64,000 nt of DNA from an uncultured Thermotogae bacterium (GTDB taxonomy: Bacteria; Bipolaricaulota; Bipolaricaulia; UBA7950; UBA9294), in NCBI GenBank assembly GCA_964554715.1, contig CAZKPU010000001.1, positions 5,833 through 69,832 of the forward strand. The letters run 5' to 3'. Numbering within the stretch: the first letter of the stretch is position 1; each line of letters opens with the position of its first letter. The position numbers and the translations under genes are program-made. Positions 5,496 to 39,788 of this stretch are shown piece after piece. The notes under the pieces are model-generated. The model saw nothing but the letters and a program-made list of their open reading frames with translations. It did not search any database and was not told the DNA's origin.

Positions 5496-5861
5496 TCTTG
5501 TTTTCTCCTTTGGTCTGCGATCATCTTCTTCTAGGTCGCCGGCAATCCCATGGGCGGTTCAATCAGGTCTCCGCAAGGCAGTCTCAGCGTGCGTCATCCT
5601 GACGGCTCACTCAATGGGCACGTTTTGAGCACGATCATCATCACGAAGCTGTGGAAGCACTCTTCGGTGGCTCGCGATCTCGGTGCCTTTCAAGACGAGC
5701 TGGCTTGGTGGACCAGCGATGGCTCACCTGAATGGATCCCTCCTGTCGATGGCCTCATGGGCCGCCCTGATCATACCAGCAAGCGAACGCTGCGATGGAG
5801 TTCGGACGCGTCTTCTTGTGTTCACAGCTTCTTCCGATCCGTGTGATAGGATACCCTCACG

Positions 5862-6581: not shown

Positions 6582-6641
6582 TCACCTAGAGGAAGAAGCC
6601 GCGCCCCCGGCTTCCGTCGATCTCCTCCCGCCCGATCCGTG

Positions 6642-13116: not shown

Positions 13117-13134
13117 GTTGGCTTTCCCCCTACC

Positions 13135-14439: not shown

Positions 14440-14456
14440 GGTGTCCTGGCTCCTTT

Positions 14457-15215
14457 TTACTGCACGTGGCTTGCGTGCAGGCCCTCTGAAATCTTCCCGG
14501 CGGAACGCACGACCCGCCGGATCACTCGGTCTCGCTTCTTGCCCTCCAAGCGGTGGGACGGTGCCGACACGCACAACGACGCCACGACTTGGCCGTCTGC
14601 AGCAAGGATCGGCGCACCGATCCCATAGGTTCCTTCATCGACTTCGCTGTCGGACTCTGCGTATCCCAGACTGCGGATTCTGTTGAGTTCCTCATGCAGC
14701 TTCTTGGGGGTTGTGATCGTATTGGCGGTAAACCGCGCAAGCCCGTACCGCTCGATGATGGTGTCTTGGCGTTCGGGATCCAGGAACGCCATCAGCGCCT
14801 TTCCGGATGCACCTGCGTGCAGAGGGAAGACCGCCCCACGCTGGTGCGACACGCGAAGCGCGTGAAGACCTTCGATCCTCTCCAAGCACACGCCGTCGTG
14901 ATCGCGCAGCGAAGAGAGAATCACTGTTTCACCTTCCTGTCTGGACAAGGTACGCATGATCGGCAACGCGATCTCACGCAGGCTTGGCCGGACAACGCAG
15001 CCGGCGAGTTCGAGAATCTTCGTTCCCAGACGATAGATTCCGCTGCGTTCTTGGACGATGAGATGGTGCTTGCGGAGCACGGCGAGATATCGATACGCCG
15101 TACTCGCTGGCAGATCCATGCGCTCAGCGATCTCCCCGGCCGACAGGGCAGGTGTCTCAGGTGAGAACAGGGTGAGGATCCGGATCCCTTTCTCCAGCGT
15201 TGATAGCCCGCTCAT
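14457..15215 (-). CDS. IclR-family transcriptional regulator
   Basis: N-terminal wHTH ([24 protein letters not shown]) and C-terminal IclR effector domain. The preferred start is MSGLST (GGGGG SD). Confidence 0.75.
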
Positions 15216-15305
15216 GACGCCCCCGGCTCGAGAGGATCGCACAGAGGCCGTGCGGGCCTCTTCTTGGGGAGGCGCACGCACGGCTTAGATCCACAATCGG
15301 AGTCG

Positions 15306-15331
15306 ATGGAGACACATTTCCTCATCTCCAT
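15306..15331 (-). promoter_or_regulatory. perfect 7-bp inverted repeat ATGGAGA-N12-TCTCCAT upstream of iclR (candidate operator)
   Basis: Seen directly in the acn-iclR spacer. Confidence 0.3.
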
Positions 15332-15351
15332 CGTCGCCGGATTGATATCGT

Positions 15352-17235
15352 TCATTGTGTTGTGTAGGCAAGCAGTCCGCCCGCTCGGATCATGTCCATC
15401 TCGCGCTCGGACAGATCGTGGCGGATCTCGATCGTCTCCCCCGTGGTCCGGTTGAGCACGGAAAGCGGCCGGGTGAGATCCGAAACATCGATCTCGAGTT
15501 CGTCTCCCGGATTCAACCGATCCGTATCGGCCATGAACGGGATGATCCCGACGTTGATCAGATTCGCACGGTGAATCCGTGCGTAGGTCTTGGCAAAGAC
15601 GGCCTTGATGCCGAGCTGCCAAGGAGCGAGCGCTGCGTGCTCTCTGGAAGAGCCTTGGCCGTAGTTGTCTCCACCCACAATGAAGCCGCCGTTCTTCTCG
15701 GTGGCGCGGTCGGCGAACTCCTTATCCTCGTAGAAGAAGGTGAACTTCGCGATCTCCGGAAGGTTGCTGCGGAGATGCTGAGTCAACGGACCGGCCGGAA
15801 GGATGGCGTCTGTAGAGATGCCGTCTCCGACCTTGAGAAGGACCTCTCCTTTCAGCGTCTGAGGGAGAGGCTGTTGCGGTCGCAGAGCGACGATATTCGG
15901 TCCTCGGCGGATCTCCATCGAAGCGCCGGCCGGCTCGAGGATGAGCGTGTCGTCGATCGTTAGGCTGGAGACCTCGACTTCGACCGCGGGCAGCTTCCGC
16001 GGATCGGCGATCGCCCCAGCGAGCGCCGAAGCCGCAGCAACCTGCGGGCTGCAAAGGGCGAGCTTCCCGAACTTGTTTCCGCCGCGACCTTTCCAGTTTC
16101 GGTTCACCGTTCGCAGAGAGAGGTGTTCGTGACCGGGAACGAACCCGATTCCGATGCAAGCATTGCATCCCGGCTCGATCATCCGGACACCGGCCTTGGT
16201 CATCGCCAAGAAGCTTCCGTCCTCCATCAGCATCTCCCAGGCCTGTCGCGATCCGGGTGATACAACGACATCGATGTCGGGAGAGACCTTCTTGCCCTTC
16301 AGAATCTCGGCCGCGATCTTCACATCCTGATAGCTTCCGTTTGTGCACGATCCGATGTAGACCTGATCGATCTTCGTACCCTCGACTTCTTCGATGTCGA
16401 AGACGTTGTCGGGCATTCCGGGCATGGCAACCAGCGGCTTCAGCGCAGACAGGTCGATCTCGATCGTCTTGTCGTAGGTTGCCCCCGGATCAGGCTGTAC
16501 GGCGACCCAATCCCCCTCTCGCTCCTGCATGGCAAGGAACTGCCGGGTGATGTCGTCGGACGGGAAGATCGACGAGGTAGCTCCCGTTTCCGTACACAGG
16601 TTGGTGATCGTAGCGCGTTCGGGAACGGTCAGCGTCTTTACTCCGGGGCCGTCGAATTCGAGGAAGTACCCCACGCCTCCCTTCACCGAGATGCGTCGCA
16701 GAATCTCGAACGCGATGTCTTTGGCCGCAGCGCCCCAGGGCAGCTTCCCGGTGAGCACGACCCGCAGCGTTTGCGGAACGGTCAAATAAAACAACCCGCC
16801 GCCCATGGCGACGGCGACATCGACCCCTCCTGCACCGATTCCGAGCATCCCCAATCCGCCTGCCGTCGGGGTGTGCGAATCGGACCCGAGAAGCGTCTTG
16901 CCGGGAACGCCGAACCGCTCGTAGTGAAGCTGGTGGCAAACGCCGTTCCCGTTCTTGGAGAACTTGGCGCCGTAGTGGGAAGCGATCGTCTGCAGGAAGA
17001 TATGGTCGTCCGTTGACTCGCCCTTGAATCCGAGCGATGTGTGATCGGAGTACGATACGACCGTCTCCGCCTTGACCCGATCCAATCCGAGCGATTCGAA
17101 CTCCAGCCAGGCCATCGTTCCGGTCGAATCCTGCGTCAGACAGTGATCAATCTGGATTCCGACGGGGGTTCCTTTGGTGAGTTCCCCCTCCCGAATGTGA
17201 TGGGAGAGGATCTTTTCCGTGATCGTCTGCGGCAC
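15352..17235 (-). CDS. acn: aconitate hydratase, ~630-aa Aquifex/archaeal type (fused catalytic and swivel domains)
   Basis: Aconitase-family Fe-S ligand motifs (…GSCTNGS…, …CNACIGIG…) and a C-terminal swivel domain. The likely start is GTG 17235 (MPQTITEKIL, AGAGGTGAT SD); the track start at 17292 is an alternative. Confidence 0.75.
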   Translation of the reverse strand: MPQTITEKILSHHIREGELTKGTPVGIQIDHCLTQDSTGTMAWLEFESLGLDRVKAETVVSYSDHTSLGFKGESTDDHIFLQTIASHYGAKFSKNGNGVCHQLHYERFGVPGKTLLGSDSHTPTAGGLGMLGIGAGGVDVAVAMGGGLFYLTVPQTLRVVLTGKLPWGAAAKDIAFEILRRISVKGGVGYFLEFDGPGVKTLTVPERATITNLCTETGATSSIFPSDDITRQFLAMQEREGDWVAVQPDPGATYDKTIEIDLSALKPLVAMPGMPDNVFDIEEVEGTKIDQVYIGSCTNGSYQDVKIAAEILKGKKVSPDIDVVVSPGSRQAWEMLMEDGSFLAMTKAGVRMIEPGCNACIGIGFVPGHEHLSLRTVNRNWKGRGGNKFGKLALCSPQVAAASALAGAIADPRKLPAVEVEVSSLTIDDTLILEPAGASMEIRRGPNIVALRPQQPLPQTLKGEVLLKVGDGISTDAILPAGPLTQHLRSNLPEIAKFTFFYEDKEFADRATEKNGGFIVGGDNYGQGSSREHAALAPWQLGIKAVFAKTYARIHRANLINVGIIPFMADTDRLNPGDELEIDVSDLTRPLSVLNRTTGETIEIRHDLSEREMDMIRAGGLLAYTTQ

Positions 17236-17345
17236 AGCAATCACCTCTGCGCTGCGCGCGGCGGAAGGCTGCATGCGCAACTGCGCCGCCACGCGCGGGT
17301 GCGTTTCTCACATGATGAGAAGGGAGTCTCATTTTGTGGTTGCGC

Positions 17346-17374
17346 ATCGTAGACGATCCTTGAGGAATTGTCAA
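17346..17374 (-). promoter_or_regulatory. sigma70-type promoter of the acn/rTCA cluster
   Basis: Minus-strand TTGACA (17374-17369), 17-nt spacer, TACGAT (17351-17346). Confidence 0.55.
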
Positions 17375-17408: not shown

Positions 17409-18791
17409 CTATGCGAGGAGGTCAGATTTCGCATCGGCGTAAGCGCCGTTTCGAACGGATTTTGCGGCGTTGAGTCCAGCGCGCACGGCCCCCTCGATCG
17501 TTGAGGGCCATCCGGTTTCGATCCAGTCTCCGGCGAGCTGCAACCCAGCAATCCCTGAACAGGCGTGAGGGCGAAACGCATCGGCACCGGGGTCGGCAAC
17601 AAACGTCGCTTCTCGCCAACGAGATGCGAACCATCCGCGAAGGCCGGCCGATGCCGTTGGGGGCAGAAGGCGCGTCAGCGGGTCGAGGAGCGAGTTGAGG
17701 ATCTCTACGTCGGGAAGCGAGATGAGATCGTGGGCGTTGCTCTGCGAAAGCACGAGATGATGACCGATCGGCTCATGCCGGATCGCCGACACGTCGAAGA
17801 CCGCTTGAACCGGTCCGTCCACGGCGATGAAAAACGGTTGCTTCCTCTGCATCACCGGTCGATCGAACCACAGGTGCAGGTTCACAATCGGTGCCCAGCG
17901 GAGGTTCAAGGCAGAGCGGATGGCTTGCTGGATGCGCCCTTCGACGTTGCTGCGGAGCATCGCGACCAGATGGGCGGGAGGAACGGCGGCAACCACCGAG
18001 GACGCGCTGATGCGATCTCCGGTGGATAGCTGAACACCGACACAACGCCCGTCTCGAATCTCGATCGATCGGACCCGGGTCCTCAGCCGGACCGTTCCAC
18101 CATGATGTTCGATGTACGGAACCGCTGCACCGAACAACTGGGAGAGAGGGCGAAGGAAGAAGCCCAAGTCCGCACCGTGAGGGGAAAGAAACGCATCCCG
18201 AAACACCTTGGCTGCAGCGCCGATGTCAACAGTGGACGCAGCTGCATTGAGTGCGGCGATCGACACCGGATCCCAAAAACGGGCGATCGTTCTCTCCGAC
18301 TGAGCCCTGCGGCGAAGCCACGCGGCGAACGTCTCCTCTTCTTTGGGCGCCCTCAGCCAGAGAGTCAGTGCCGCTGGGAGAACTCGGATCCGGTCTGCCG
18401 TCGACAACGGGCGGTACCGAAGCAGGCTGGGGAGGAGGTTGAGCGGCGAGGGAAGAGGGGCTGAGGCGATCCGCGCGCGAATCGGTTCTGGAACGTCATG
18501 GGTTGTGATCGGTACTTCCAGCGAGGGCTGGAAGCAGACATCATCTCCGACGCCAAGACGTCGGAACAACGCTGTCGATTCGGTACAGCAGCGCATGAGA
18601 ACGTGCTGTCCTGCATCAAGATCGCCGAATATCGGGTGAGAAAGCGAACCGGCGCGTCCTCCGAGCCGGGGACCCTGCTCGATGAGGGTGACGCGGTATC
18701 CGTGGTCTGCGAGCGAGCAGGCGCAAGCGATGCCGGCGGCACCGCCGCCGACTATGATGATCGGGTCGGAAGGCATCTTGTCCCGATCCAT
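17409..18791 (-). CDS. hpnE: hydroxysqualene dehydroxylase (FAD-dependent, HpnE)
   Basis: 460 aa with an N-terminal GGGAAG FAD motif. It is the last gene after hpnC-hpnD. Confidence 0.75.
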   Translation of the reverse strand: MDRDKMPSDPIIIVGGGAAGIACACSLADHGYRVTLIEQGPRLGGRAGSLSHPIFGDLDAGQHVLMRCCTESTALFRRLGVGDDVCFQPSLEVPITTHDVPEPIRARIASAPLPSPLNLLPSLLRYRPLSTADRIRVLPAALTLWLRAPKEEETFAAWLRRRAQSERTIARFWDPVSIAALNAAASTVDIGAAAKVFRDAFLSPHGADLGFFLRPLSQLFGAAVPYIEHHGGTVRLRTRVRSIEIRDGRCVGVQLSTGDRISASSVVAAVPPAHLVAMLRSNVEGRIQQAIRSALNLRWAPIVNLHLWFDRPVMQRKQPFFIAVDGPVQAVFDVSAIRHEPIGHHLVLSQSNAHDLISLPDVEILNSLLDPLTRLLPPTASAGLRGWFASRWREATFVADPGADAFRPHACSGIAGLQLAGDWIETGWPSTIEGAVRAGLNAAKSVRNGAYADAKSDLLA

Positions 18792-19657
18792 GTTTTCGTT
18801 ACCAGGAGCAGCTTCGTGCTTGTGCCGATCGGTGTGATGGAGAGAGAGGCCCGACCTACGGCCTGAGAGATCCTGCGGAAGTATTCCTCGTAGACAGCAG
18901 CCATCAACGCCGGTGCGAGCCGGCTTCGAGCGGGAAGCATCCGGAACAGCTTCTTGCCTTCGACCAGATAGGAGTTCGCTCGTCGGAGCTGGAACTCCAG
19001 CATTTCACGCGCCGGGCCGGTGAGGGGGTCCTCCAACAGATCCCGTTCGGACAACCCGAAGCGGACAAGATCCTCTTGGGGCAGGTACACGCGATCGATC
19101 GCGTGGTCCGCGCGGACATCGCGCAGGATGTTGATCAGTTGAAGCGCCAGTCCGAGCGCTTCGCCTTTCTCCCGGAGTTGCTCCCGATGGCAGGGGTAGC
19201 GTCCTTGGGCGAGAATCGGCAGCACAGACAGTCCAACCGCGGACGCAACCAGGGCGCAATACCTTTGAAGCTGCTCGAACGTTCGGTACCGGCTGATCGT
19301 CAGATCCATCTCCACACCATCGATGATGGCGATCAGGTCGTCAAGTTCAATCCCGAAACGTTGGATGGCATCGCCAAGCGCGATGTCGCGGAGTTCGGAG
19401 TCATCGGAATCACGGTTTGCGCAACGGACGAGGCGTTCACGCAGTTTCACAAGCTTCGGTCTCTTTGCCTCGACGGAGGCGTCGCCGTCGGCGATGTCAT
19501 CGGCCTCTCGACAGAACGCATACACGGCACACATGGCGAGCCGTTGCTGTGTTGGCAGAGATCGGATCCCGAGCGCGAAGCTGCTGGATGCGGCCTGCGT
19601 GGCTTGCTCGGCCGCGCGATAGGCATGGAGGATCTGCGGTGAGATGACGTGGGTCAT
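18752..19657 (-). CDS. hpnD: presqualene diphosphate synthase (HpnD)
   Basis: Squalene/phytoene-synthase fold with Asp-rich motifs; its start overlaps the hpnC stop (ATGA). Confidence 0.75.
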   Translation of the reverse strand: MTHVISPQILHAYRAAEQATQAASSSFALGIRSLPTQQRLAMCAVYAFCREADDIADGDASVEAKRPKLVKLRERLVRCANRDSDDSELRDIALGDAIQRFGIELDDLIAIIDGVEMDLTISRYRTFEQLQRYCALVASAVGLSVLPILAQGRYPCHREQLREKGEALGLALQLINILRDVRADHAIDRVYLPQEDLVRFGLSERDLLEDPLTGPAREMLEFQLRRANSYLVEGKKLFRMLPARSRLAPALMAAVYEEYFRRISQAVGRASLSITPIGTSTKLLLVTKTWIGTRCLPTRSS

Positions 19658-20580
19658 GGGTGGCTGAGTAGGCTGAGCAGAAACAGCCTCAGCTTGTCCT
19701 TTCCGCCGACCTCCGGACGGGTGATCAGCGTATCAAAGCCCTGGTCCGAGATCTTCCTGAGGATCGCCTGTCCGCCGCGGCTGAACAGCGCCAGATCGAC
19801 ACGCAGGTGTCCGCGCACATGCCTGACAAGCGGCCATCCTTGCTCGAACAGCGCCTCGGTTCTACCGGCCTCGAACGCCACCAAACGCCGGAGAGAGTCG
19901 GATGCCGCTGCCCGATCAAGATCGCCCTCGCGGACGTTGAAGCGGTCCATATCTTCTTGGGGAAGGTAGATCCTGCCCATGGCACGGTCCCGGCGGATGT
20001 CCTGCCAGAAGTTGGTCAGTTGCAGCGCCGTGCAGGTGGCGTCCGACAGCTGATGGAGCTTCTCATCCCGATAGCCGTACAGGAGGAGGAAGAGGCGTCC
20101 GACCGGGACGGCGGAGAAGCGGCAGTAGCTCAGAAGATCCTCGTAGGTCTCGTAGCGATGGTTGACCTGGTCCAGTCGATTCGCGGTCACAAGATCGATG
20201 AACAGTTGTTCCGGCAGGCAGTAGTCCGCGACGGTCTTCTGCAAGGCGATGAGGATCGGATGGGTCGTGTCTCTCCCGGCGATCGCGTCCCGTAGCATCC
20301 TCTCGAACCGGTCGAGGAGTTCGGTGCGATCCCCCGGAGCCTCGTCGCCAAGATCATCGACCGTGCGGCAGAAGCCGTACAATGCCGCGAGATGCGGTCG
20401 CAGTCGCCGGGGAACCAACCACGAGATGACGGTGAAGTTCTCGTAATGTCTCCCTGCGAGGCGAAGGCATGCGGCCTGGGCTTCCGGCAACGAGACAGCG
20501 GAAGCCGGAGGAGCGATGACGGCAGCAACATGAGGAGCGGGTTCGGACATCGTCCGGGTCTCCGTTTCCGGATCTACCAT
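19654..20580 (-). CDS. hpnC: hydroxysqualene synthase (HpnC)
   Basis: Squalene-synthase-like, 308 aa, paralogous to hpnD. Confidence 0.75.
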   Translation of the reverse strand: MVDPETETRTMSEPAPHVAAVIAPPASAVSLPEAQAACLRLAGRHYENFTVISWLVPRRLRPHLAALYGFCRTVDDLGDEAPGDRTELLDRFERMLRDAIAGRDTTHPILIALQKTVADYCLPEQLFIDLVTANRLDQVNHRYETYEDLLSYCRFSAVPVGRLFLLLYGYRDEKLHQLSDATCTALQLTNFWQDIRRDRAMGRIYLPQEDMDRFNVREGDLDRAAASDSLRRLVAFEAGRTEALFEQGWPLVRHVRGHLRVDLALFSRGGQAILRKISDQGFDTLITRPEVGGKDKLRLFLLSLLSHP

Positions 20581-21029
20581 CCCTGTACCTGCACGATCAC
20601 CTCACGGTCTCGAGGTCGGTCGAGTTCGATGAGGAACAAAGTCTGCCACCGCCCGAGCATTAACTCGCCGTTACAGATCGGGATGGTCTCGCTCGTTGTC
20701 ATCAGCAAGTGCTGACAGTGCGAATGACCGTTCGGGCATTCATCTTCGGTCATGTTCGCAGTTCGTACGGCGAAATCGTTGTGCCGGTACGGTGCTTCTC
20801 TTGGGGCGATCCGTTTTAGGAAGTACGTCATGTCCTGCAGCAACAGGGGCTCGTTCTCGTTGATCTTCACCGCGGCCGTCGTGTGCCGCGAGAAGATGAC
20901 GACGGATCCTTCTTGGATTCCCGAACGCCCGACGATCTCTCTGACGTTGGCCGTGATGTCCATGAATTCGGGCGCCGCTTTCGCTTGACGACGGATCGTC
21001 TCCCGGTGCCCTCGGACCATCGGAGGCAT
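20574..21029 (-). CDS. YjbQ/UPF0047-family protein (secondary thiamine-phosphate-synthase-like)
   Basis: The C-terminus LMLGRWQTLFLIELDRPRDREVIVQVQGW resembles the E. coli YjbQ C-terminus. The start is uncertain (track ORF begins at 21110). Confidence 0.55.
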   Translation of the reverse strand: MPPMVRGHRETIRRQAKAAPEFMDITANVREIVGRSGIQEGSVVIFSRHTTAAVKINENEPLLLQDMTYFLKRIAPREAPYRHNDFAVRTANMTEDECPNGHSHCQHLLMTTSETIPICNGELMLGRWQTLFLIELDRPRDREVIVQVQGW

Positions 21030-21130
21030 CTCCCGATCGTGGTTTTGATCCTGCGCTGTGTCACGGTCTTGAACCGGAACCTGCATCGGATGGGTTGCTT
21101 TCCTGTTCATGAGGTGTTATCAGCACGATC

Positions 21131-22009
21131 TTAGCGATCTGCCTTCCCTCCTTTCGTACAAGATTTCGTCGAGAGCTCGAGTTGCTCCACGACTTCGGCG
21201 ATCACATCATCCGGGGTGGACGCACCGGCGGTAACGCCGATCCGTTCGAAGGTACCGCTGGTAATCTCCTGAAGCTCATCTGCCGATTCGATGTGGTAGG
21301 TCGGGATTCCGGTAGCTCGGCAGGTCTCGGCCAGTTTTCGGGTGTTCGCCGAGGAACGGCTTCCAACCACGATCAGCGCGTCGACTTCCATCGCGAGGTG
21401 CTTCGCCGCGTCGTAGCGGCGCCCGGTTTCCGGACATGTTGTGTTGACGATCCGAATCTCCGGAGTCCTGCCGGCGAATCGGCGCGTCAGTGCCTGAGCA
21501 AACTCTGCGAACAGCTCGGGCTTCTTTGTCGTCTGAGCAATGATGCCGATCCCCTTTGTGCCTTCGGGGACCTCGACATCGGCAGAGACCGTTGCTGCTC
21601 CGCACCCTCTTGTCCATGAGAGGATGCCCTTCACCTCGGGATGATCGGCATCGCCGTAGAGAATGACGTAGAACCCGTCATCGACCAGCTTGGCTGCCGT
21701 TTCCTGCGCCCGACGGACGATCGGACAGGTTGTGTCGACCAACCGAAGACCTCGCTGACGGATTTCGGTATGAACCTCCTCGCCGGCGCCGTGGGCGGTG
21801 ATGGCGACGGTTCCTCCCTCCGGAACCTCATCCAGGGTGGACACCAGGTGCGCCCCCTTGCGAGCGAGGCCGTTGACAACATGCGTGTTGTGGACGATTG
21901 CACCGAGCGTGCACAACGGGCCGTGCTCGGAAAGGTCCGTCTCAATCATATTGACGGCTCTTCGGACGCCGAAACAGAACCCGAAGATGTTCGCGCGAAC
22001 GATGTTCAT
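21131..22009 (-). CDS. ispH: 4-hydroxy-3-methylbut-2-enyl diphosphate reductase
   Basis: Collinear with LytB/IspH (…FGFCFGVRRAV…, …TTCP…, …NTTCPET…). The true start is MNIVRAN at ATG 22009, overlapping the shc stop (ATGA). Confidence 0.85.
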   Translation of the reverse strand: MNIVRANIFGFCFGVRRAVNMIETDLSEHGPLCTLGAIVHNTHVVNGLARKGAHLVSTLDEVPEGGTVAITAHGAGEEVHTEIRQRGLRLVDTTCPIVRRAQETAAKLVDDGFYVILYGDADHPEVKGILSWTRGCGAATVSADVEVPEGTKGIGIIAQTTKKPELFAEFAQALTRRFAGRTPEIRIVNTTCPETGRRYDAAKHLAMEVDALIVVGSRSSANTRKLAETCRATGIPTYHIESADELQEITSGTFERIGVTAGASTPDDVIAEVVEQLELSTKSCTKGGKADR

Positions 22010-23964
22010 ACCGACTCTCCCCCGTTTCTCAAGCTGCGACACTTCTTCTCGTACCGCCCCAGCGCCATCAGAGGGAACACATCGCGATAGATGTGATAGC
22101 GGATCATGAAGTCGGTCGGGAACCCTGTTCCTGTGAACCACGGCTCGTCCCACCCGCCGTCATCGCGCTGCGTGCGGATGAGGTATTCGATCCCGCGCTC
22201 CACCGCCGGATGGTGCACCTCTCCAGCAGCGATCAATCCGAGAAGAGCCCATCCGGTCTGCGATGCAGTTGATGGACCACGGCCGCGATACGTCGGGCCG
22301 TGATAACTCTCCACCCTCTCTCCCCAGCCTCCGTCTTCGTTCTGCCGTTCGAGAAGCCATGACACCGCGCGCCTCACGTACGGTGCCCTCATGTCTTCCC
22401 CCACCGCTTCCAGCGCCGGGAGGACGGTACCGGTTCCGTAGATCAGATTGACGCCCCATCGGCCGTACCAGGCGCCGTCTTCTTCCTGTTGCTGCTTCAG
22501 ATACCGGAGGGCACGTCGGAGAACGGGATGATGCATCGGCCATCCCAGCCGGCCGAGGAACTCGACGATATGACCGGTCACATCGGCGGACGGAGGATCG
22601 ATCATCTCACCGAAGTCGGCGAAGGGGATCTTGCGCGTCCAGGTTTGCGTGTTGTTCCGGTCAAACGCACCCCACCCACCGCCACGGCTCTGCATCCCCA
22701 CCAACCACTCGGTACCGCGGGCAATCGCTTCCCGTTTGCGACCCTCATCCAGTTTCGCCTCGGCAAGAGCCATCATGACCACTGCGGAGTCGTCCGTGTC
22801 CGGATAGATGTCGTTGTCGAACTCGAACGCCCACCCGCCCGGGCGAGCGTTGCAGCGAACCTGCCAATCTCCACCGACAAGGATCTGCTCGCGCAGCAGC
22901 CATTCCCCTGCACGGATCAGAACATCATCATCTTCCGAGACGCCCGCATCCTCCAGCGCCATCATCGCCAATCCGGTATCCCAGACCGGCGAAAGACACG
23001 ACTGCAAGTGGAACGTATCCTCGTCCTCCATCGCGAACCCCTGAGGTCCGTAGAACCCGTCGAGACCCTTCTTGATCACAGGATGATCGAGTTTGTATCC
23101 GAGTTCATGCAGAGCGATCAGCGAGTACACCCACGGGGGCTGGATGCCGCCCCACGACCCATCGGCTTCCTGCCGATCCGCGATCCACCGCTCGGCTCTG
23201 CGAAGCGCCGTCTTCCGAAGAGGTTTGTACGGGAGCCGGTTGTAGAGGCGATAGAGCTTGTCGAACACCACGAACATCCGGCTGATCGGTGTCTTCTTGC
23301 GGTCGGGGACACGATCGTCGGCTCCTTCGCGTCCGTTGACGAACAGCTCGTCGATCGTTGCTTCCCGCGGAAGCGGTACGACCGGTTCCAGAGTTCGGAC
23401 GACGGCCAACGCCCCAACGGTCTGCCTTGCCCAGCATGCGAAGGAGTAGATGTTCACCGGGAAACGGCGCGGCAGAAGGAACAGCTCGATAGGGATCATC
23501 GGCGTTCCCCGCCACGTCCACTCACCCATCATGGCGAACCACATCTTGGTGAAGATGCGCGCGTTCTCCATGCCCCCTTCAGACAAGATGTAGTCTCGAG
23601 CCCGCACCATCTCGGGGGTCTCCACGGGGATGTCGGCCATCTTCAGGGCCAGATACGCTTCGATCGTGGTCGAAAGGTCGGCTGCTCCCTCGAACCAGTT
23701 GCTCCATGTCCCATCTTCCCGTTGCATCTCGAGGATGTAGCGGGCCGCCTTTTTCTGTTCCTTCTTGTCGGAGATCCCGAGGATATGGCGGAGAAAGACG
23801 TGTTCCGCCGTGATGGTGACGTTGGACTCCAGCTCGGCCCACCAGTAACCGTCTTCATGTTGCATCCTGCGAAGATGCTCAATGGCCTGCTCGATCGCGT
23901 GTTGCCGCGCTTGGGCAGCAGATCCCGTTCTCACCGTTGTCGTTGCCGTCTGTTCGATACTCAT
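22006..23964 (-). CDS. shc: squalene-hopene cyclase
   Basis: 652 aa with repeated QW motifs and a DGGWG-type terpene-cyclase signature. Confidence 0.85.
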   Translation of the reverse strand: MSIEQTATTTVRTGSAAQARQHAIEQAIEHLRRMQHEDGYWWAELESNVTITAEHVFLRHILGISDKKEQKKAARYILEMQREDGTWSNWFEGAADLSTTIEAYLALKMADIPVETPEMVRARDYILSEGGMENARIFTKMWFAMMGEWTWRGTPMIPIELFLLPRRFPVNIYSFACWARQTVGALAVVRTLEPVVPLPREATIDELFVNGREGADDRVPDRKKTPISRMFVVFDKLYRLYNRLPYKPLRKTALRRAERWIADRQEADGSWGGIQPPWVYSLIALHELGYKLDHPVIKKGLDGFYGPQGFAMEDEDTFHLQSCLSPVWDTGLAMMALEDAGVSEDDDVLIRAGEWLLREQILVGGDWQVRCNARPGGWAFEFDNDIYPDTDDSAVVMMALAEAKLDEGRKREAIARGTEWLVGMQSRGGGWGAFDRNNTQTWTRKIPFADFGEMIDPPSADVTGHIVEFLGRLGWPMHHPVLRRALRYLKQQQEEDGAWYGRWGVNLIYGTGTVLPALEAVGEDMRAPYVRRAVSWLLERQNEDGGWGERVESYHGPTYRGRGPSTASQTGWALLGLIAAGEVHHPAVERGIEYLIRTQRDDGGWDEPWFTGTGFPTDFMIRYHIYRDVFPLMALGRYEKKCRSLRNGGESV

Positions 23965-25019
23965 GGCTTCGCTTCCCCTGCGGTTTTTCGGATAGTGGAC
24001 ACCATCTGCGCGACAAGATCCCCTTCTGGGACGTTGACGGCAGCGGGTTCTCCGTGGACGTAAATCGTCGCCCGTCCCGGAGCACCGACCATGCCGACAT
24101 CCGCCTCACGTGCCTCCCCGAGTCCGTTGACCACGCAGCCCATCATGGCAACCGTCAACGGAGCATCAAGATCTCGGACCGCCTCTTGCACGCCAAGGGC
24201 GATTTTCTCCAGCGGAATCCCGGTCCGTCCGCACGTCGGACAGACACGGAAGGTGATCCCTCGCTGGCGCAGGCCGAGAGCACGGAGGATGGCATAGGCG
24301 ACCCGCACTTCTTCGACGGGATCGCCGGTCAGGGAGACGCGGACTGTGTCGCCGATCCCCTGTTCGAGCAGCACGCCGAGACCGACGGCCGATCGGATTC
24401 CGCCTTCCCATGCCGTTCCCGCTTCCGTGATCCCGATGTGCAAGGGGTAATCGCGTTCATCGGCCATTCTGCGGTAAGCGGCGACCGTCATCGGAACATC
24501 GGTTCCCTTGAGCGAGACGACGATCTCCGTGAACCCGTGATCTTCGAGAAGACGCACCTGTGCGAGAGCGCTTTCGACCATTCCTTGTGCGGTAGCGCGA
24601 CCGTGCTCATCGAGGAACTCTCGCGCGAGAGACCCGGAGTTGGCCCCGACCCGGATCGGGATCCCAGCGGCGGATGCAGCGTCAACGACTTCCATAACCT
24701 TCTTCGGATCAGTGATATTCCCTGGGTTGAGCCGCAGCTTGTCGACTCCGGCGTGGATCGATGCCAGGGCGATGCGATGATCGAAGTGGATGTCGGCCAC
24801 AAGGGGGATGCTGATCCGCTCACGGATGCCGGGGATCGCGGCCGCTGCGGCCACGTCGGGAACGGCAACGCGGACAAGCTCGCAACCCGCGGCCTCTAAT
24901 CTTCGGATCTGGTTCACGGTGGCATCGATATCGTGAGTGTCCGTATTGGTCATCGACTGGACGATGATCGGAGCCCCCCCACCGATACGAACGCCGCCGA
25001 CAAGGATCTCGCGTGTCAT
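23961..25019 (-). CDS. ispG: 4-hydroxy-3-methylbut-2-enyl diphosphate synthase
   Basis: GcpE-family with the C-terminal CPTCGRT cluster motif. The true start is MTREILVGG at ATG 25019; the track ORF is over-extended. Confidence 0.85.
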   Translation of the reverse strand: MTREILVGGVRIGGGAPIIVQSMTNTDTHDIDATVNQIRRLEAAGCELVRVAVPDVAAAAAIPGIRERISIPLVADIHFDHRIALASIHAGVDKLRLNPGNITDPKKVMEVVDAASAAGIPIRVGANSGSLAREFLDEHGRATAQGMVESALAQVRLLEDHGFTEIVVSLKGTDVPMTVAAYRRMADERDYPLHIGITEAGTAWEGGIRSAVGLGVLLEQGIGDTVRVSLTGDPVEEVRVAYAILRALGLRQRGITFRVCPTCGRTGIPLEKIALGVQEAVRDLDAPLTVAMMGCVVNGLGEAREADVGMVGAPGRATIYVHGEPAAVNVPEGDLVAQMVSTIRKTAGEAKP

Positions 25020-25657
25020 GATTCGACCCCTTGCTCGATTTCTTCCTGGACCAATGCAACAGCACGGCCGATGGTTGCTGCAGCCCGCACGGCGCTTCGA
25101 GCGATGCGCCGGGTCGCGACGGGATGGCAAAACGCTGATCGGACCGGCGAATCTGCGTTGGAGAACGGGAGGTCTTGATCCGCCGAGTCCAGAACGACAC
25201 GGACGATGACCAACTCTCCGCCGTGGCCGGAAACCATCTCGGCCAACGGTCCGCTCTCGGTATCGACGGCGAGCGCGTGTGTCCTTGCCCAAAGCGCGCG
25301 CTTGGCGGCGGGGGTTGAGAAGACATCCGGGCGGTATGCGACGGTGCCGCGCAGGCAGCGGACTCCTCCGCGTTCAAGGCGTTCTGCAATCCGCTCCGCG
25401 AGATGGCTGTTGAGAGGGCGCAGACCCGTCCCGTCTTCGATCGATTCGGCGATGATGACCTCATTCGCCCTTAGGTGGCTGGCGAGCGCACCACAGTATC
25501 CTGTGGAGACGACGGTCGTCGGCTGGACCGTCCGGCCCAAGAAGCCCGCCAAGGTCTTCCCGGCATCTTCTCCCATGCCGGTCTTGACCTTCTCCCAGCC
25601 GCGCCTGCGCGGGATGCGGGAGAGTTCTATGCGCGTGCTTGCCGCCACGACGTTCAT
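25016..25657 (-). CDS. hpnG: hopanoid-associated phosphorylase/nucleosidase (HpnG, PNP/MTAN family)
   Basis: PNP_UDP-like fold. The true start is MNVVAAS at ATG 25657, overlapping the hpnH stop (ATGA). Confidence 0.65.
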   Translation of the reverse strand: MNVVAASTRIELSRIPRRRGWEKVKTGMGEDAGKTLAGFLGRTVQPTTVVSTGYCGALASHLRANEVIIAESIEDGTGLRPLNSHLAERIAERLERGGVRCLRGTVAYRPDVFSTPAAKRALWARTHALAVDTESGPLAEMVSGHGGELVIVRVVLDSADQDLPFSNADSPVRSAFCHPVATRRIARSAVRAAATIGRAVALVQEEIEQGVES

Positions 25658-26658
25658 GATCGGCCTTCCTCCAGCGCAACCTTCAGCAGATCCCACGGCC
25701 TCCGGAACGATGCAAGGATGCTCGCTCCTTCGAACGACGAGTGAATCATGCAGTTCGCGCACCGTTTGTCCTTCCCGGGGCCGTAGCGCTTCCACAACGC
25801 CGGATCCAGGAGTGGATCGATGGAATCCACGTGTTCATCGGCGATCAAATAGCAGGGAAGCCGCCATCCGCGGACCGTGTAGGTGGGCGTGGTCCACGCC
25901 GCGCAGTCGTAGGTGCGGTTACCACGGAGGAACTCGAGATACAGAGGGTTGTTGTAGAACGGCAGCTTCCGTGAGGGATCGAGAACCTCGCGAAATACAC
26001 GGATCGCCTCTTGCCGTTGCAGGAACTGCTCCTGCTCACTGACGTCCTCGTAGGCGTATCCGGCCGAGACCATCAATCCCTCGATCCCGACGTTCTTGAG
26101 CCGGTCGAACGACGCATGAAGGTCTTCGACATCCGAGCCGTGGAAGATCGTCGTATTCGTGTTGACCCGGAACCCGCGGCGGATCGCCTCTTGGATTGCC
26201 GAGAAGGCGGTGTCGTACGAACCCGGACGTCCGGTCACCTGATCGTGAATCTTGGCGGTTCCGTCCATGTGAACGACAAACGCCAGGTACGGTGATGGTT
26301 TGAACAGGTCGAGATTCTCCTCGAGCAACAGCCCGTTCGTGCACAGGAAGATGAACCGCTTGTCTTCCACCAACGCGCGGATCAGTTCATCCAGATGCTC
26401 ATACAGCAGAGGCTCTCCACCGGACACCGAGACGACGGGCGCTCCCGCAGACTGCACGGCAGTCATGGCATCATCGACGGACATCCGTTGATCAAGGACA
26501 TCCTGGTATTCTCGGATGCGTCCGCAGCCCTGACAGCGAAGGTTGCACGCCTCCAACGGTTCGATCATGGTCACGAACGGGAAGTGCGATTGCCGTGACA
26601 GCTTCTTCTTCAGGATGTACCTGGCCATCGTCATATCGAATGTGGCTGGCCTTTTCAT
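25654..26658 (-). CDS. hpnH: adenosylhopane synthase (radical SAM, HpnH)
   Basis: CNLRCQGCG radical-SAM motif. 334 aa. Confidence 0.75.
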   Translation of the reverse strand: MKRPATFDMTMARYILKKKLSRQSHFPFVTMIEPLEACNLRCQGCGRIREYQDVLDQRMSVDDAMTAVQSAGAPVVSVSGGEPLLYEHLDELIRALVEDKRFIFLCTNGLLLEENLDLFKPSPYLAFVVHMDGTAKIHDQVTGRPGSYDTAFSAIQEAIRRGFRVNTNTTIFHGSDVEDLHASFDRLKNVGIEGLMVSAGYAYEDVSEQEQFLQRQEAIRVFREVLDPSRKLPFYNNPLYLEFLRGNRTYDCAAWTTPTYTVRGWRLPCYLIADEHVDSIDPLLDPALWKRYGPGKDKRCANCMIHSSFEGASILASFRRPWDLLKVALEEGRS

Positions 26659-27650
26659 TTGTCTCTCCTTGCCAAGAAGGCCACCAGTTCACGCATCTCA
26701 TCTTTTCCGGACGGATCGAACGGCAGGCTTTCGAGGATGGTTTCTGCTTGTTGTAGGTCGGAGTGTACGTGCACTCCCGATTGCTCCCTTGTGTCGGTTC
26801 GCTGGAGGATATTCATGACGGTGGAAACCTGCTCATCATCGATCGAGCCGCCGGCGTACACGGACGTCAGGGTGGAACGATCCTCCGCGCTGGCGTGCTC
26901 GAACGCATGCGCAATGGGGAACGACTTCTTCCGCCGCCGGATGTCGGAGCCTCTCGGTTTTCCGGTGGTCCCCGGATCCCCCCAGATTCCGAGCATGTCG
27001 TCCCGGATCTGGAATGCACGCCCGACGTGACGTCCGAATGAGACCAGGTCACGTCGTACACCGGCGGGCGCATCGGCACATACGGCCCCCAGTTCGAACG
27101 CGCAGCGAAGAAGGGCGCCGGTCTTACGATCGATCATCTCCAAGTATTCGGCCACATCCACGTGACGTTCCTCGAACGACAGGTCCATGGCTTGTCCTTC
27201 GATCATCGCTGTCGTTGCCCGGTTCAGCACGCTCAGTGCCTCGGTGCCGCTTTCGAGAGCTTCTCCGATGGCCATCGAATGCAGGAGATCGCCGGCGTTG
27301 ATCGCTTGTGCAACGCCGATGCGGCTCCACACGGTGGGACAGCCACGTCGTGTGGGATCCTTGTCCTGGATGTCGTCGTGGATCAGCGAGAAGTTGTGCA
27401 CAAGCTCCAGCGCAACCGCCGCTCGGAGCGCTCGATCGAGCCGCCCGCCCAAGCGTTCGCAGGTGAACAGGACAAGAGATGGGCGGAGCAGTTTCCCCAA
27501 CCGGTTTCTTGATGCACCGTGTTCATCCTCGAGGCCGACGTGGTATCGAAGAACAGGGTGGAGAAGGCTGTCCCCGCACAGGGCGGATCGCAGCGCCTTC
27601 TCGAGAGGCTCGGTGTAACGGCTGAGGAGAAGCGGGGCGTTTGAGGTCAT
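26655..27650 (-). CDS. ispA: polyprenyl diphosphate synthase (FPP/GGPP synthase)
   Basis: DDxxD motifs (LIHDDIQD, FQIRDDMLG). The true start is MTSNAPL at ATG 27650; the 512-aa track ORF carries an Arg-rich spurious extension. Confidence 0.8.
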   Translation of the reverse strand: MTSNAPLLLSRYTEPLEKALRSALCGDSLLHPVLRYHVGLEDEHGASRNRLGKLLRPSLVLFTCERLGGRLDRALRAAVALELVHNFSLIHDDIQDKDPTRRGCPTVWSRIGVAQAINAGDLLHSMAIGEALESGTEALSVLNRATTAMIEGQAMDLSFEERHVDVAEYLEMIDRKTGALLRCAFELGAVCADAPAGVRRDLVSFGRHVGRAFQIRDDMLGIWGDPGTTGKPRGSDIRRRKKSFPIAHAFEHASAEDRSTLTSVYAGGSIDDEQVSTVMNILQRTDTREQSGVHVHSDLQQAETILESLPFDPSGKDEMRELVAFLARRDK

Positions 27651-28291
27651 GTTGTCCTTTCCGGAGGCCGCAAGTCCACGAGGTGCATCCGCTCCGCGAC
27701 GGTGATGAGATCTGCGGCCGTTCCCACACCGAGCTTGCGCATGATTCGAGCGCGGTGATTCCTGACGGTGTGGAGACTGCGCATCATGATGTCGGCGATT
27801 TCCGCGTTCCGTCTTCCTTCGACGATTAGTTGCAGGACTTCTCGTTCTCGTGATGTGAGTGCTCCGACGTTTTCGTTTGCGCTGTCTTCTTGTTGCGCCC
27901 CTTCGACGTTCGGGAACACGCGTTCTCCGCCGGCGACTCTGTGCAACATCTCCAGCATGGTGGCTGCCGGAGTGTCTTTGAAGACGTAGCCGGAGACACC
28001 ACGCTGCCGCGCCTGATTCACGAGCTCCCGGCTGGTGTGCATCGACAGGATGACAATCTTCGTCTCGGGTGAGACTCTGCGGACGTGGCGAATCGCTTCC
28101 AGCCCGTTTAGAAGGGGCATCGAGATATCTACAAGCACGATGTCCGGCTGGTGAACGCGGGTCAGCCGAACGAGCTCGCGCCCGTCTCCGCACACACCGA
28201 CCACGTCAAACGATGCGCTGGCAAGAAGGGTAGAGAGACCCTCTCGCACCAACGCATGATCGTCTGCAAGCACCACCCGAAGCGAACTCAT
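27647..28291 (-). CDS. NarL/LuxR-family response regulator (REC plus HTH)
   Basis: REC domain with the phospho-acceptor Asp in LVDISMP and a LuxR-type HTH. Its stop overlaps the ispA start (ATGA). Confidence 0.8.
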   Translation of the reverse strand: MSSLRVVLADDHALVREGLSTLLASASFDVVGVCGDGRELVRLTRVHQPDIVLVDISMPLLNGLEAIRHVRRVSPETKIVILSMHTSRELVNQARQRGVSGYVFKDTPAATMLEMLHRVAGGERVFPNVEGAQQEDSANENVGALTSREREVLQLIVEGRRNAEIADIMMRSLHTVRNHRARIMRKLGVGTAADLITVAERMHLVDLRPPERTT

Positions 28292-28392
28292 AACCCATTA
28301 TTCTATCGAGGACAACCCGAGCAACCACGGGGTAAATGTATCAATCGTGCGTGCGGCTCTCCGGGCCGTTCGACGAGTCATCTGAGGCGTGC

Positions 28393-29040
28393 TCAGGAAC
28401 CCCGGCATGGCTCGTCATCGGCCATCGACGTTTCGTTGTCGAGCAGCGCTCTTGTGCCGACTCGACGCGCGTGGGCGACCAGCCCGGTCCTCGTACGGAT
28501 ATCGAGTTTGGACATCAACCCTTGAATCCTGTTTTCGACCGACCTCGGGCGAAGGGAAAGGCACTCGGCGATCTCCTCGTTGTCCTTGCCGAGGCACAAG
28601 AGAGAGAGGATCTGACACTCTCGTGGGGTCAGCAGGGTGGAGGGCGGAATCGTCCTGCCGCGGGCCGCCTGCCGAATGGCAGCGCAGAGTTCCTCTCGCG
28701 AGCAGGTCTTGGAGATCAACCCCAGTGCTCCGAGACGCAATGCGCGCTGGGCGATCTCCGGCTCGTCGTACATGGAAAGCATAAGCACCGCTGTGTTCGG
28801 GGAAGCGGAGAGGAACGTCGGAATCGCGTCAAGTCCGTTGCCATCGGATAATGCGATATCCAAGAGCATCACATCGGGGTGCTGGGCCGCGGCAAGACGG
28901 ACACCTGAGGCAAGGTTGTCTGCCGCACCGATCACGGAGAACTCAGGATCGGAACCGAGCAGCAGGTTCAAACCCTGCCGTACGAGTTCATGATCGTCAA
29001 CGATGAGAATGTGGATCGGGCTCATACGGTACCTTGGCAA
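28393..29040 (-). CDS. NarL/LuxR-family response regulator
   Basis: REC domain plus LuxR-type HTH; it overlaps the 3' end of the kinase gene. Confidence 0.8.
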   Translation of the reverse strand: MPRYRMSPIHILIVDDHELVRQGLNLLLGSDPEFSVIGAADNLASGVRLAAAQHPDVMLLDIALSDGNGLDAIPTFLSASPNTAVLMLSMYDEPEIAQRALRLGALGLISKTCSREELCAAIRQAARGRTIPPSTLLTPRECQILSLLCLGKDNEEIAECLSLRPRSVENRIQGLMSKLDIRTRTGLVAHARRVGTRALLDNETSMADDEPCRGS

Positions 29041-30241
29041 TCAGCTCCGTTCCTTCCCCCGGAGATGCATTGATCAGCAAACGTCCGCCAACGGCGTCCA
29101 GCCGCTCGGACGCGCTACGGAGGCCCAGCCCCTGCATGTGTGATGGGTCGAACCCGATGCCGTTGTCTTTGACTTGGACATGAAGCGAGGCGGGGTGCTG
29201 CCGGATGGTGATCGATACTTCGCTTGCATGGGCATGACGGGTGACGTTTCGTAGGGCTTCGGAGATCACCGTGTAGACCAGCCACTCGATTCCCTCGGGC
29301 AAGCGATGCTCGATGTCGATCTCGGTCACGATCCGCAGATCGGTCGCCTCGCCGCTCATCCGCCCCAATTCCCGGATCGCCGGCTCGAGTCCCAGTTCAT
29401 CGAGAAGCGGAGGTCGCAGTGTACGGGTGAGATGACGCGTCTGGCGGATGGCGTGATCCGCAACGGCTTCCAGCTTGCTTCGGTCATCTTGCGAGATCGA
29501 GGGAAGAACGGCTGCATGAAGCTTAATCGCCGCCAGAGATTGACCGACTTCATCGTGAAGCTGTCGAGCGATCCGCCGCCGCTCCTCATCTTGGGCGATA
29601 AGAAGCTGGCGCGAGAGGCGTGCGAGATCAGCCTCTCTGCGTACCAACGCTCGCTGCTTGCTCCAGTAGTATCCGTTGAAGGAGCGCACGGTGTGAGAGA
29701 TGACCACATAGATCGCGAGCGCGCCGGCAAGGATGGTCGGGAGCACGTATCCAAGGCTCCGATAGCCGTTGGGACCAAGCGATGAGAACAACGAACGGTG
29801 GGGAAGCACGCCGAGATACTCCAGAAGGACGAGGCCCGTGTACAGCAGGATCACGGTCGACGTTAGGATGATGCTGTGGCGGTTGGACAAGAAGTAATTG
29901 GCGGTAACAACTGTGGGCATGTAGAAGATGATCCCGATCCACTCCGCACCTCCCATCAGATGAACCAGGATCGTAATGACCATGGCTTCAAGGACGGAGT
30001 AGCTGATGTGTGCCCACTGCAGCTCCCGCTCGTTTTGTTGACGTCGGATGAGGAACGAGAACAGAAACGTTAGCGCGAGCCACGCGAACGGAGAGTAGAA
30101 GAGAGGGTTGAGATAGCTGATGTCGGTGGCAAGGATCACCACCGAAGCAATCACACAGAAGACCGACAGTGTCACCAGACGTGAACGGACCGTTCGTTGA
30201 ACGGACGCGCGCAGCTGCTCCAGAGCCGATTCCGTCGGCAT
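28997..30241 (-). CDS. sensor histidine kinase, HisKA_3 (DesK/NarX-like) with polytopic membrane N-terminus and no periplasmic domain
   Basis: About 6 predicted TM helices in the first 200 aa, then an H-box (LHDEVGQSL) and HATPase_c. Confidence 0.75.
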   Translation of the reverse strand: MPTESALEQLRASVQRTVRSRLVTLSVFCVIASVVILATDISYLNPLFYSPFAWLALTFLFSFLIRRQQNERELQWAHISYSVLEAMVITILVHLMGGAEWIGIIFYMPTVVTANYFLSNRHSIILTSTVILLYTGLVLLEYLGVLPHRSLFSSLGPNGYRSLGYVLPTILAGALAIYVVISHTVRSFNGYYWSKQRALVRREADLARLSRQLLIAQDEERRRIARQLHDEVGQSLAAIKLHAAVLPSISQDDRSKLEAVADHAIRQTRHLTRTLRPPLLDELGLEPAIRELGRMSGEATDLRIVTEIDIEHRLPEGIEWLVYTVISEALRNVTRHAHASEVSITIRQHPASLHVQVKDNGIGFDPSHMQGLGLRSASERLDAVGGRLLINASPGEGTELIAKVPYEPDPHSHR

Positions 30242-38625: not shown

Positions 38626-38637
38626 GAAATCCCTTCC

Positions 38638-39633: not shown

Positions 39634-39788
39634 CTTGCTTTTCGTGTTTCCCTTCGGGACCGTGGGTCCTCAGAACCGGTGCGATGCACATCGTAACGCA
39701 TTTGCCGCGCCGTTCCAGCAACCCCTTCTCACATTCCCGTTCTCGTTGGGGTTGGGAAAATGGGGGCGGCACTCGTCCTGATGAACGA

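Follow-up and report, generated by a model that had tools for sequence, protein, structure and literature searches.

How hopanoid synthesis is regulated in bacteria is, to our knowledge, a matter on which very little is known. The question is raised by a locus in which a response regulator gene stands at the head of genes for isoprenoid precursors, squalene and hopanoids, within a 64,000-nucleotide stretch (the window) of contig CAZKPU010000001.1, assembly GCA_964554715.1, from an uncultured bacterium: are these genes one unit, what would they make, and what would control them? The region is probably a hopanoid biosynthesis operon controlled by an adjacent two-component system through a conserved 20-nucleotide (nt) box, in a Bipolaricaulota-related bacterium. 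The lineage itself is judged to be probably Bipolaricaulota-related because the closest named homologues are labelled Acetothermia or Bipolaricaulota; the nearest named homologues of the YjbQ protein (67-73%), for instance, are labelled Candidatus Acetothermia or Bipolaricaulota. Nitrospira had also come into question as the source, given the ATP-citrate lyase genes and a GC content of 60%, and was set aside on account of these homologues.

The preliminary description had presented an eleven-gene co-directional array, largely coupled by overlaps and headed by a response regulator whose stop overlaps the start of the prenyl synthase gene. This layout stands, as all eleven open reading frames (ORFs) are present on the minus strand, from 28291 down to 17409, in the order RR2, ids, hpnH, hpnG-like, ispG, shc, ispH, yjbQ, hpnC, hpnD, hpnE. 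They are listed in that order; here and below, x vs y denotes a profile score in bits against the curated cut-off.

27647-28291, minus: RR2, NarL/LuxR-type response regulator, first gene of the predicted operon (PF00072, 90.5 bits; PF00196, 60.3 bits)
26655-27650, minus: ids, short-chain trans-prenyl diphosphate synthase (polyprenyl_synt, 217 bits)
25654-26658, minus: HpnH, radical-SAM (S-adenosylmethionine) adenosyl-hopene transferase (TIGR03470, 403 vs 225)
25016-25657, minus: HpnG-like nucleoside phosphorylase/nucleosidase (TIGR03468 top match, E 1.5e-26, 93 vs 187)
23961-25019, minus: IspG, hydroxymethylbutenyl diphosphate (HMBPP) synthase, two-domain form (NF001540, 459 vs 345)
22006-23964, minus: squalene-hopene cyclase (SHC; TIGR01507, 825 vs 431)
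21131-22009, minus: IspH, HMBPP reductase (TIGR00216, 253 vs 188)
20574-21110, minus: YjbQ/UPF0047 protein (TIGR00149, 109 vs 68 bits; PF01894, 127 bits)
19654-20580, minus: HpnC, presqualene diphosphate to hydroxysqualene (TIGR03464, 308 vs 250)
18752-19657, minus: HpnD-like presqualene diphosphate synthase (TIGR03465 top match, 219 vs 279; SQS_PSY, 222 bits)
17409-18791, minus: HpnE, flavin adenine dinucleotide (FAD)-dependent hydroxysqualene dehydroxylase, last gene of the predicted operon (TIGR03467, 362 vs 283)

Seven of the junctions are 4-nt ATGA overlaps (RR2/ids, where stop and start overlap at 27650-27647, ids/hpnH, hpnH/hpnG, hpnG/ispG, ispG/shc, shc/ispH and hpnC/hpnD), and the other genes either overlap slightly or lie 20 nt apart. 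The hpnD and hpnE genes overlap by 25-40 nt; yjbQ and hpnC overlap by 7 nt or, if hpnC starts at 20550, are separated by 23 nt; and the 20-nt gap, the widest of the array, lies between ispH and yjbQ, the latter taken to start at 21110. In favour of this start are a homologous ATGAAC start in the nearest related locus, L012, and the ATGA/GTGA junctions that couple ispH and yjbQ in seven relatives. The gene calls on an 86-kb ENA metagenome scaffold that encodes the exact SHC protein (ERZ23495388, scaffold_58) match the ORF calls made here.

No convincing minus-strand terminator was found inside the array, where the single weak match, with a 5-pair stem, lies within hpnE (17621-17604). Neither the Rfam nor the tRNA scan of the whole window gave a match, so that no riboswitch or RNA element was picked up between the genes. 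A generic promoter and terminator scan yielded what shuffled sequence would (11 terminator-like matches in the region vs 10.9 expected from shuffles), and its sole useful result was the promoter of the aconitase gene that follows:

17346-17374, minus: sigma-70-like promoter TTGACA-17-TACGAT (10/12 matches), located after the hpnE stop and ahead of the aconitase gene

This element, read as 17374-17346, likely marks the downstream boundary of the operon. The array thus lies on one strand, with short or overlapping junctions, one predicted promoter and no convincing internal terminator, as a single operon does at the sequence level, and one transcript is predicted, running from the RR2 start codon at 28291, or just before it, to the end of hpnE at 17409. 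The arrangement is not a chance one, because gene order and flanks are identical in L012 and the full RR2-to-hpnE order recurs in nine metagenome contigs.

The catalytic motifs of the array enzymes are intact, and the family profiles agree with the labels first given to the genes, that of the prenyl synthase apart. HpnH combines Radical_SAM and DUF3463 domains and has CNLRCQGC as its CX3CX2C motif. IspG retains its cluster cysteines (C260, C263, C295), as does IspH (C12, C95, C192). SHC has the DxDD protonation motif as DTDD at residues 389-392, together with eight QW motifs, and HpnE has its FAD-binding motif. The three-enzyme squalene set of HpnC, HpnD and HpnE is present, HpnC and HpnE scoring above the cut-off and HpnD below it. 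The HpnG-like protein carries PNP_UDP_1, and its place after hpnH is kept across loci; for HpnG and HpnD, context carries part of the weight of the assignment.

The prenyl synthase had been called an FPP (farnesyl diphosphate) synthase, ispA. Its membership of the prenyl synthase superfamily holds, whereas the profiles do not bear out the narrower label: ids misses every equivalog cut-off, those of the FPP synthase models included (NF045485, 153 vs 275; PRK10581, 113 vs 321), and its best NCBIfam model is "family 2 encapsulin cargo polyprenyl transferase" (304 vs 450 bits). The first Asp-rich motif is DDIQD, with Phe at -5 and no bacterial type II insertion; the second is the variant DDMLG (DDxLG, not DDxxD), and the closest solved relative, 3NF2, has DDLLG. 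With 3NF2 (a putative polyprenyl synthetase) and 1WY0 as its best PDB matches, ids most resembles, as judged from sequence, the hopD-like and archaeal-type C15-C20 synthases. Its genomic context suggests FPP as the product, while the protein evidence reaches as far as the polyprenyl_synt superfamily.

Taken together, these enzymes outline a route from precursor to hopanoid. IspG and IspH would complete the methylerythritol phosphate (MEP) pathway to isopentenyl diphosphate (IPP) and dimethylallyl diphosphate, the prenyl synthase would make FPP, and HpnD, HpnC and HpnE would convert FPP to squalene, which SHC would cyclise to diploptene and diplopterol. HpnH would then attach the adenosyl side chain, and the HpnG-like enzyme would strip adenine, turning adenosylhopane into ribosylhopane. 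Among the roughly 40 window ORFs examined, no hpnI, hpnJ, hpnK, hpnN, hpnO, hpnP, hpnA, hpnB or dxs was found, nor were genes for tailoring, methylation or transport. From the pathway steps above, the expected end products would be C30 hopenes and C35 ribosylhopane or bacteriohopanetetrol. Apart from the pairs RR1/RR2 and HpnC/HpnD, the cluster genes have no paralogues in the window. With the two Fe-S, flux-limiting MEP steps on the same transcript, precursor supply would rise with demand.

A candidate answer to what might control this route lies upstream of the array, in a region that the preliminary description had left out. The functional unit probably includes a histidine kinase gene and a second response regulator gene (28393-30241), and the RR1-RR2 gap holds a conserved box and a promoter-like hexamer. 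In the order of transcription, the features are as follows.

30594-30566, minus: candidate weak promoter TTGCCG-17-TACCAT of the DUF3467 gene; the promoter-like sequence is conserved in L012
30253-30537, minus: DUF3467 small protein, 94 aa, first gene of a likely sensor unit (PF11950, 71.7 bits)
28997-30241, minus: sensor histidine kinase (HisKA_3 and HATPase_c in Pfam and NCBIfam; H-box His229)
28393-29025, minus: RR1, NarL/LuxR-type response regulator (Response_reg and GerE), overlapping the kinase stop by 29 nt
28326-28345, minus: 20-nt box ATTGATACATTTACCCCGTG, conserved across the clade; predicted operator
28300-28305, minus: -10-like hexamer TAGAAT, 20 nt past the box and 8 nt ahead of the RR2 ATG

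Hydropathy gives the kinase about six hydrophobic or transmembrane segments at residues ~20-185, followed by HisKA_3 and the ATPase domain, and no extracytoplasmic domain. A multi-transmembrane sensor that passes straight into the HisKA_3 and ATPase domains is the architecture of DesK, and DesK is also the top match of the kinase among solved structures in the PDB (E 1.3e-10). RR1 and RR2 share 31% identity. RR2 has the intact receiver residues of a NarL/FixJ-type regulator (DD10-11, D55, S83, K105) and reaches no specific equivalog cut-off; its ATG at 28291 is backed by conservation in L012 and by the promoter geometry. The kinase and tandem regulators (HK-RR1-RR2) are kept in 19 loci although the proteins are merely 35-55% identical, and the DUF3467 gene is kept in L012 only.

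In the 101-nt gap between RR1 and RR2 the window and L012 have largely diverged, save for a near-identical block of about 60 nt. The box was aligned over 22 loci. The 19 loci examined for spacing share one layout, in which the 20-nt box, with the clade consensus ATTAGTACrGTTCCCCCATT and T6, C8, C14-16 and T19 invariant, is followed by a 20-22-nt spacer, a TAnnAT hexamer and, 6-10 nt on, a start codon. In all, these elements stand ahead of the first gene of the operon in 24 loci, three of which begin with ids instead of the regulator gene. Relative to the predicted start of transcription the box is centred about 43 nt upstream, near -43, where LuxR-type class II activators classically sit, and it covers a weak -35 region. 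From this box-hexamer-ATG geometry a leaderless or near-leaderless operon mRNA is predicted, and the promoter-like element immediately 5' of RR2 gives independent support to the earlier claim that the regulator heads the array.

A weight matrix built from 17 sites finds a single box in the 64-kb window (22.1 bits; next score 15.3, shuffle maxima up to 17), and no second copy was found there upstream of the kinase gene, yjbQ or hpnC. In the 2.27 Mb of fetched loci it finds 23 sites, of which 21 are correctly oriented 25-52 nt upstream of RR2 or ids, leaving 2 stray matches in 4.5 Mb of scanned strands; five of the 21 promoter-placed loci were absent from the matrix-building set. By this measure the box is no general promoter element of these genomes. 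The top scores, 28.6 bits, come from L118, L120 and L131, where the gene after the box is ids instead of RR2; in L131 the kinase and both regulators adjoin the operon and are divergently oriented. Since the box also heads operons that start with ids, it is tied to the promoter of the hopanoid operon and not to the regulator gene itself. Our inference is that one of the adjacent LuxR-type regulators uses the box as its operator.

On this evidence a regulatory scheme can be proposed. The adjacent kinase would phosphorylate one of the two NarL/LuxR-type regulators, RR1 or RR2, which would bind the box; the all-membrane, DesK-like form of the kinase suggests a membrane property as the signal, so that hopanoid synthesis, and with it the flux-limiting late MEP steps, would be tuned to the membrane. 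RR2, because it is the first gene of the operon, would amplify its own expression.

The gene order was followed in 80 loci obtained from a genome collection with SHC as seed and mapped by tblastn. In the nearest, L012, a metagenome-assembled genome (MAG) labelled "uncultured Thermotogae", SHC is 78% identical and the order is unchanged all the way from the kinase gene to that of isocitrate dehydrogenase. MAGs labelled Bipolaricaulota or Acetothermia (SHC 61-64%) have HK-RR-RR-ids-hpnH-(hpnG)-ispG-shc-ispH-yjbQ. Loci L003, L005, L007, L008, L129, L149 and others of the Bipolaricaulota type stop after yjbQ, with no hpnC, hpnD or hpnE in the fetched flanks. Dehalococcoidia/SAR202 loci have ids-hpnH-[~2 kb]-shc-yjbQ-hpnC-hpnD-hpnE, and Actinomycetota loci hpnC-hpnD-hpnE-ids-shc-(ispH)-hpnH, with ispG in one (L077). 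Across the 80 loci, ids is present in 65, hpnH in 55 and hpnCDE in 52, yjbQ in 19 and a regulator adjoining ids in five; ispH alone occurs in 18 and ispG alone in two, and the eight that hold ispG and ispH together all come from this clade. The cluster, with ispG/ispH merged with hpn genes under a NarL-type regulator, had been described as an unusually complete precursor-to-product operon. The combination of the ispG/ispH pair with a regulator is indeed unusual, whereas the joining of precursor to hpn genes in general is not, being found already in Actinomycetota and Acidobacteria.

No connection between YjbQ and hopanoids was found in the literature searched. The protein carries an insertion of about 13 residues (HNDFxxRTxNMxxDECPNGHxHCQH) that is missing from nine solved YjbQ structures and common to all cluster-linked YjbQ proteins, in several phyla. 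In the AlphaFold model the core is confident, while the insertion (residues 106-134) has a predicted local distance difference test score (pLDDT) below 50 and offers no functional insight. A metagenome search with the YjbQ alignment as query, which avoids the bias of an SHC seed, gave 80 contigs, the closest relatives of that alignment and thus a sample that is not phylogenetically independent; in 68 of them an isoprenoid or hopanoid gene lies within 1.5 kb of yjbQ. Of the 34 contigs whose flanks reach 3 kb or more on each side, 31 have such a neighbour and 25 contain shc. The position of yjbQ varies by lineage (after ispH, between shc and hpnC, before hpnC, after ids), and a functional link is therefore favoured over a single inherited arrangement. 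In a separate group of contigs, ids-yjbQ or ids-PNP_UDP_1-yjbQ stands alone and shc is absent over 10 kb. In SAR202/Dehalococcoidia-like contigs (L123, 8767-10402; L132, 7939-10447; L124, L138, L143, L150), an insertion-type YjbQ comes right after a polyprenyl synthase, with or without PNP_UDP_1, and no shc lies within 10 kb; the link may therefore be to isoprenoid metabolism at large rather than to hopanoids. In a Chloroflexota MAG (L078, ~5473-7011), an ORF that by eye resembles type 2 IPP isomerase, which is dependent on flavin mononucleotide, precedes yjbQ-hpnC-hpnD-hpnE-shc-hpnH in frame.

The YjbQ family has a side activity as thiamine-phosphate synthase, displacing diphosphate. In this cluster YjbQ could act on an allylic diphosphate, or could supply a missing step such as ribosylhopane processing. 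It is conceivable, with the balance lying somewhat against it, that the locus represents both the first dedicated sensory circuit for hopanoids, a membrane-feedback lipid homeostasis working through a 20-nt operator on a leaderless operon that would tie the late MEP steps to hopanoid output, and, in the insertion-type YjbQ, an unrecognised isoprenoid/hopanoid enzyme or accessory factor.

Several observations weigh against a hopanoid operon under local two-component control. The box lacks an obvious inverted repeat, and an alternative sigma factor or a regulator encoded at a distance could recognise it; L118 and L120 carry the box and have no two-component system within 4 kb upstream. The resemblance of the kinase to DesK is at the family level and confined to the cytoplasmic domains. 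The scores of HpnG and HpnD fall short of the curated cut-offs, and ids misses all equivalog cut-offs and has the variant second motif DDMLG. Bipolaricaulota loci have no hpnCDE beside the cluster, so that the cluster is not always self-sufficient, and the synteny may largely reflect inheritance within one clade rather than selection. Four other explanations can be considered. That the box is an upstream or -35 element for an alternative sigma factor or a distant regulator, the adjacent two-component system controlling some other target, is unlikely; the overlap with the -35 region, the want of clear dyad symmetry and the two box-bearing loci without a nearby two-component system speak for it, whereas the box is operon-specific in the strands scanned, no sigma factor gene lies nearby, two-component genes adjoin almost every box-bearing locus, and the centre near -43 suits LuxR-type class II activators. 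Less likely still is an array of several transcription units, adjacent by descent only, with RR2 an unrelated regulator and the hopanoid genes constitutive. The 20-nt gap before yjbQ, the uncertain yjbQ/hpnC junction and the restriction of the complete order mostly to one clade are in keeping with that view, but the seven ATGA overlaps and the ATGA/GTGA coupling of ispH to yjbQ in relatives argue against separate units, and the box stays at the operon head whether RR2 or ids leads; in L131 the two-component genes are still adjacent, in the opposite orientation.

The other two alternatives concern the purpose of the cluster. A mainly housekeeping isoprenoid operon, with the sole copies of ispG, ispH and ids, hopanoid genes added on to it and a regulation that serves general isoprenoid supply rather than hopanoids, is in keeping with the absence of a second ispG, ispH or ids from the 64-kb window and with the ids-yjbQ pairs without shc in other lineages. 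It is nevertheless somewhat unlikely, as seven of the ten enzyme genes are hopanoid- or squalene-specific, and control of essential genes by a conditional activator would carry a risk if basal expression did not suffice. A non-hopanoid terpenoid is implied for J31, the first cultured Bipolaricaulota strain, in a November 2025 preprint in which a homologous core is an antiSMASH "terpenoid BGC" (biosynthetic gene cluster) and is linked to an antibacterial terpenoid-alkaloid-like compound, J31-TP1, C50H68N8 (bioRxiv 10.1101/2025.11.21.689855). Fig. S12 of that preprint lists YjbQ, IspH, SHC, HpnH, polyprenyl synthetase and a response regulator, the core shared with the present operon, which adds hpnC-hpnD-hpnE straight after yjbQ. 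The text of the preprint gives no genetic link between cluster and compound, however, and does not discuss hopanoids, an operator or YjbQ; SHC, HpnH, HpnC and HpnE score above hopanoid equivalog cut-offs, and the operon has no nitrogen-incorporating or tailoring enzymes. A non-hopanoid product is accordingly rated very improbable, and the J31-type core is taken to be a hopanoid cluster because of its gene content.

A hopanoid operon under adjacent two-component control can be set beside known systems. Clusters that join hopanoid genes to ids, ispH or ispG are already known. In Streptomyces coelicolor a hop-type cluster joins hpn genes, a prenyl synthase and MEP genes (Poralla et al. 2000, as cited in PMC8069389). 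The actinomycete clusters share with this one the HpnC/D/E-type genes, a polyprenyl synthase, SHC, HpnH, at least one MEP gene and co-directionality; the present operon differs in its gene order, in having both ispG and ispH, in YjbQ, and in a two-component system with a conserved predicted operator. Neither a response regulator gene adjoining ids nor a box site was found in the actinomycete loci examined. Acidobacteria (SD1) cluster hpnH-shc-ispH (PMC5462960), and the proteobacterial and acidobacterial clusters (Zymomonas, Rhodopseudomonas, Acidobacteria) likewise link shc to hpnH, ispH and hpnCDE (PMC5462960); unlike the present window, they usually have the hpnI/J/K/O/N/P and hpnA/B tailoring and transport genes. 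The DesK-DesR system of Bacillus subtilis shares a multi-transmembrane kinase without extracellular domain, HisKA_3 and a NarL-type regulator associated with a membrane-lipid gene; here there are about six rather than five transmembrane segments, two regulators rather than one, and a hopanoid operon rather than a desaturase as the predicted target.

A 2025 genomic survey of hopanoid biosynthesis makes no mention of Bipolaricaulota, YjbQ, ispG or ispH and names two-component systems only for Kdp, and no two-component system or operator dedicated to a hopanoid cluster is described in the literature searched. New here are the upstream sensor pair, the conserved predicted operator with its predicted leaderless promoter, the link of a YjbQ subfamily with isoprenoid genes, and the lineage. 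A sequence-defined predicted operator beside a membrane-embedded kinase is directly testable, as a Bipolaricaulota strain is now in culture. The locus also points to hopanoid potential in a deep-branching, anaerobic lineage of wide occurrence in sediments and in hydrothermal or serpentinising systems, which bears on the reading of sedimentary hopanes, and the orphan YjbQ family gains a reproducible genomic partner in isoprenoid genes.

Directly downstream of the operon, at 9990-17292 on the minus strand, lies a reductive/oxidative tricarboxylic acid cycle gene set:

15352-17292, minus: aconitase
14457-15281, minus: IclR regulator
13135-14574, minus: NADP isocitrate dehydrogenase
11830-13116 and 9990-11837, minus: both subunits of ATP-citrate lyase

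The acn-iclR-idh block also follows hpnE in L012 and in several metagenome contigs (L089, L092, L095, L097 and L111). Beyond it, at 8848-9837 (minus), is a 329-aa ORF of coding-like base composition with no Pfam family at E <= 1e-4. On the other side, upstream of the DUF3467-kinase unit, a 419-aa ORF at 30598-31857 (minus) has no Pfam match and a weak one to the sulfoquinovose isomerase NCBIfam (64 vs 700 bits), and is conserved (86%) in L012 only. Further upstream, at 37768-41497 (minus), a run of P-loop NTPase genes encodes a Mrp/NUBPL-type ParA and two CobQ/MinD-like proteins with 4Fe-4S ferredoxin inserts, with an ARMT1-like damage-control phosphatase among them. Near the far end of the window, at 1299-4215 (minus), lie genes for prephenate dehydrogenase, 3-deoxy-D-arabino-heptulosonate 7-phosphate (DAHP) synthase and prephenate dehydratase; the J31 cluster figure likewise shows prephenate dehydratase, along with shikimate-pathway genes, close to the SHC cluster of that strain (bioRxiv 10.1101/2025.11.21.689855).

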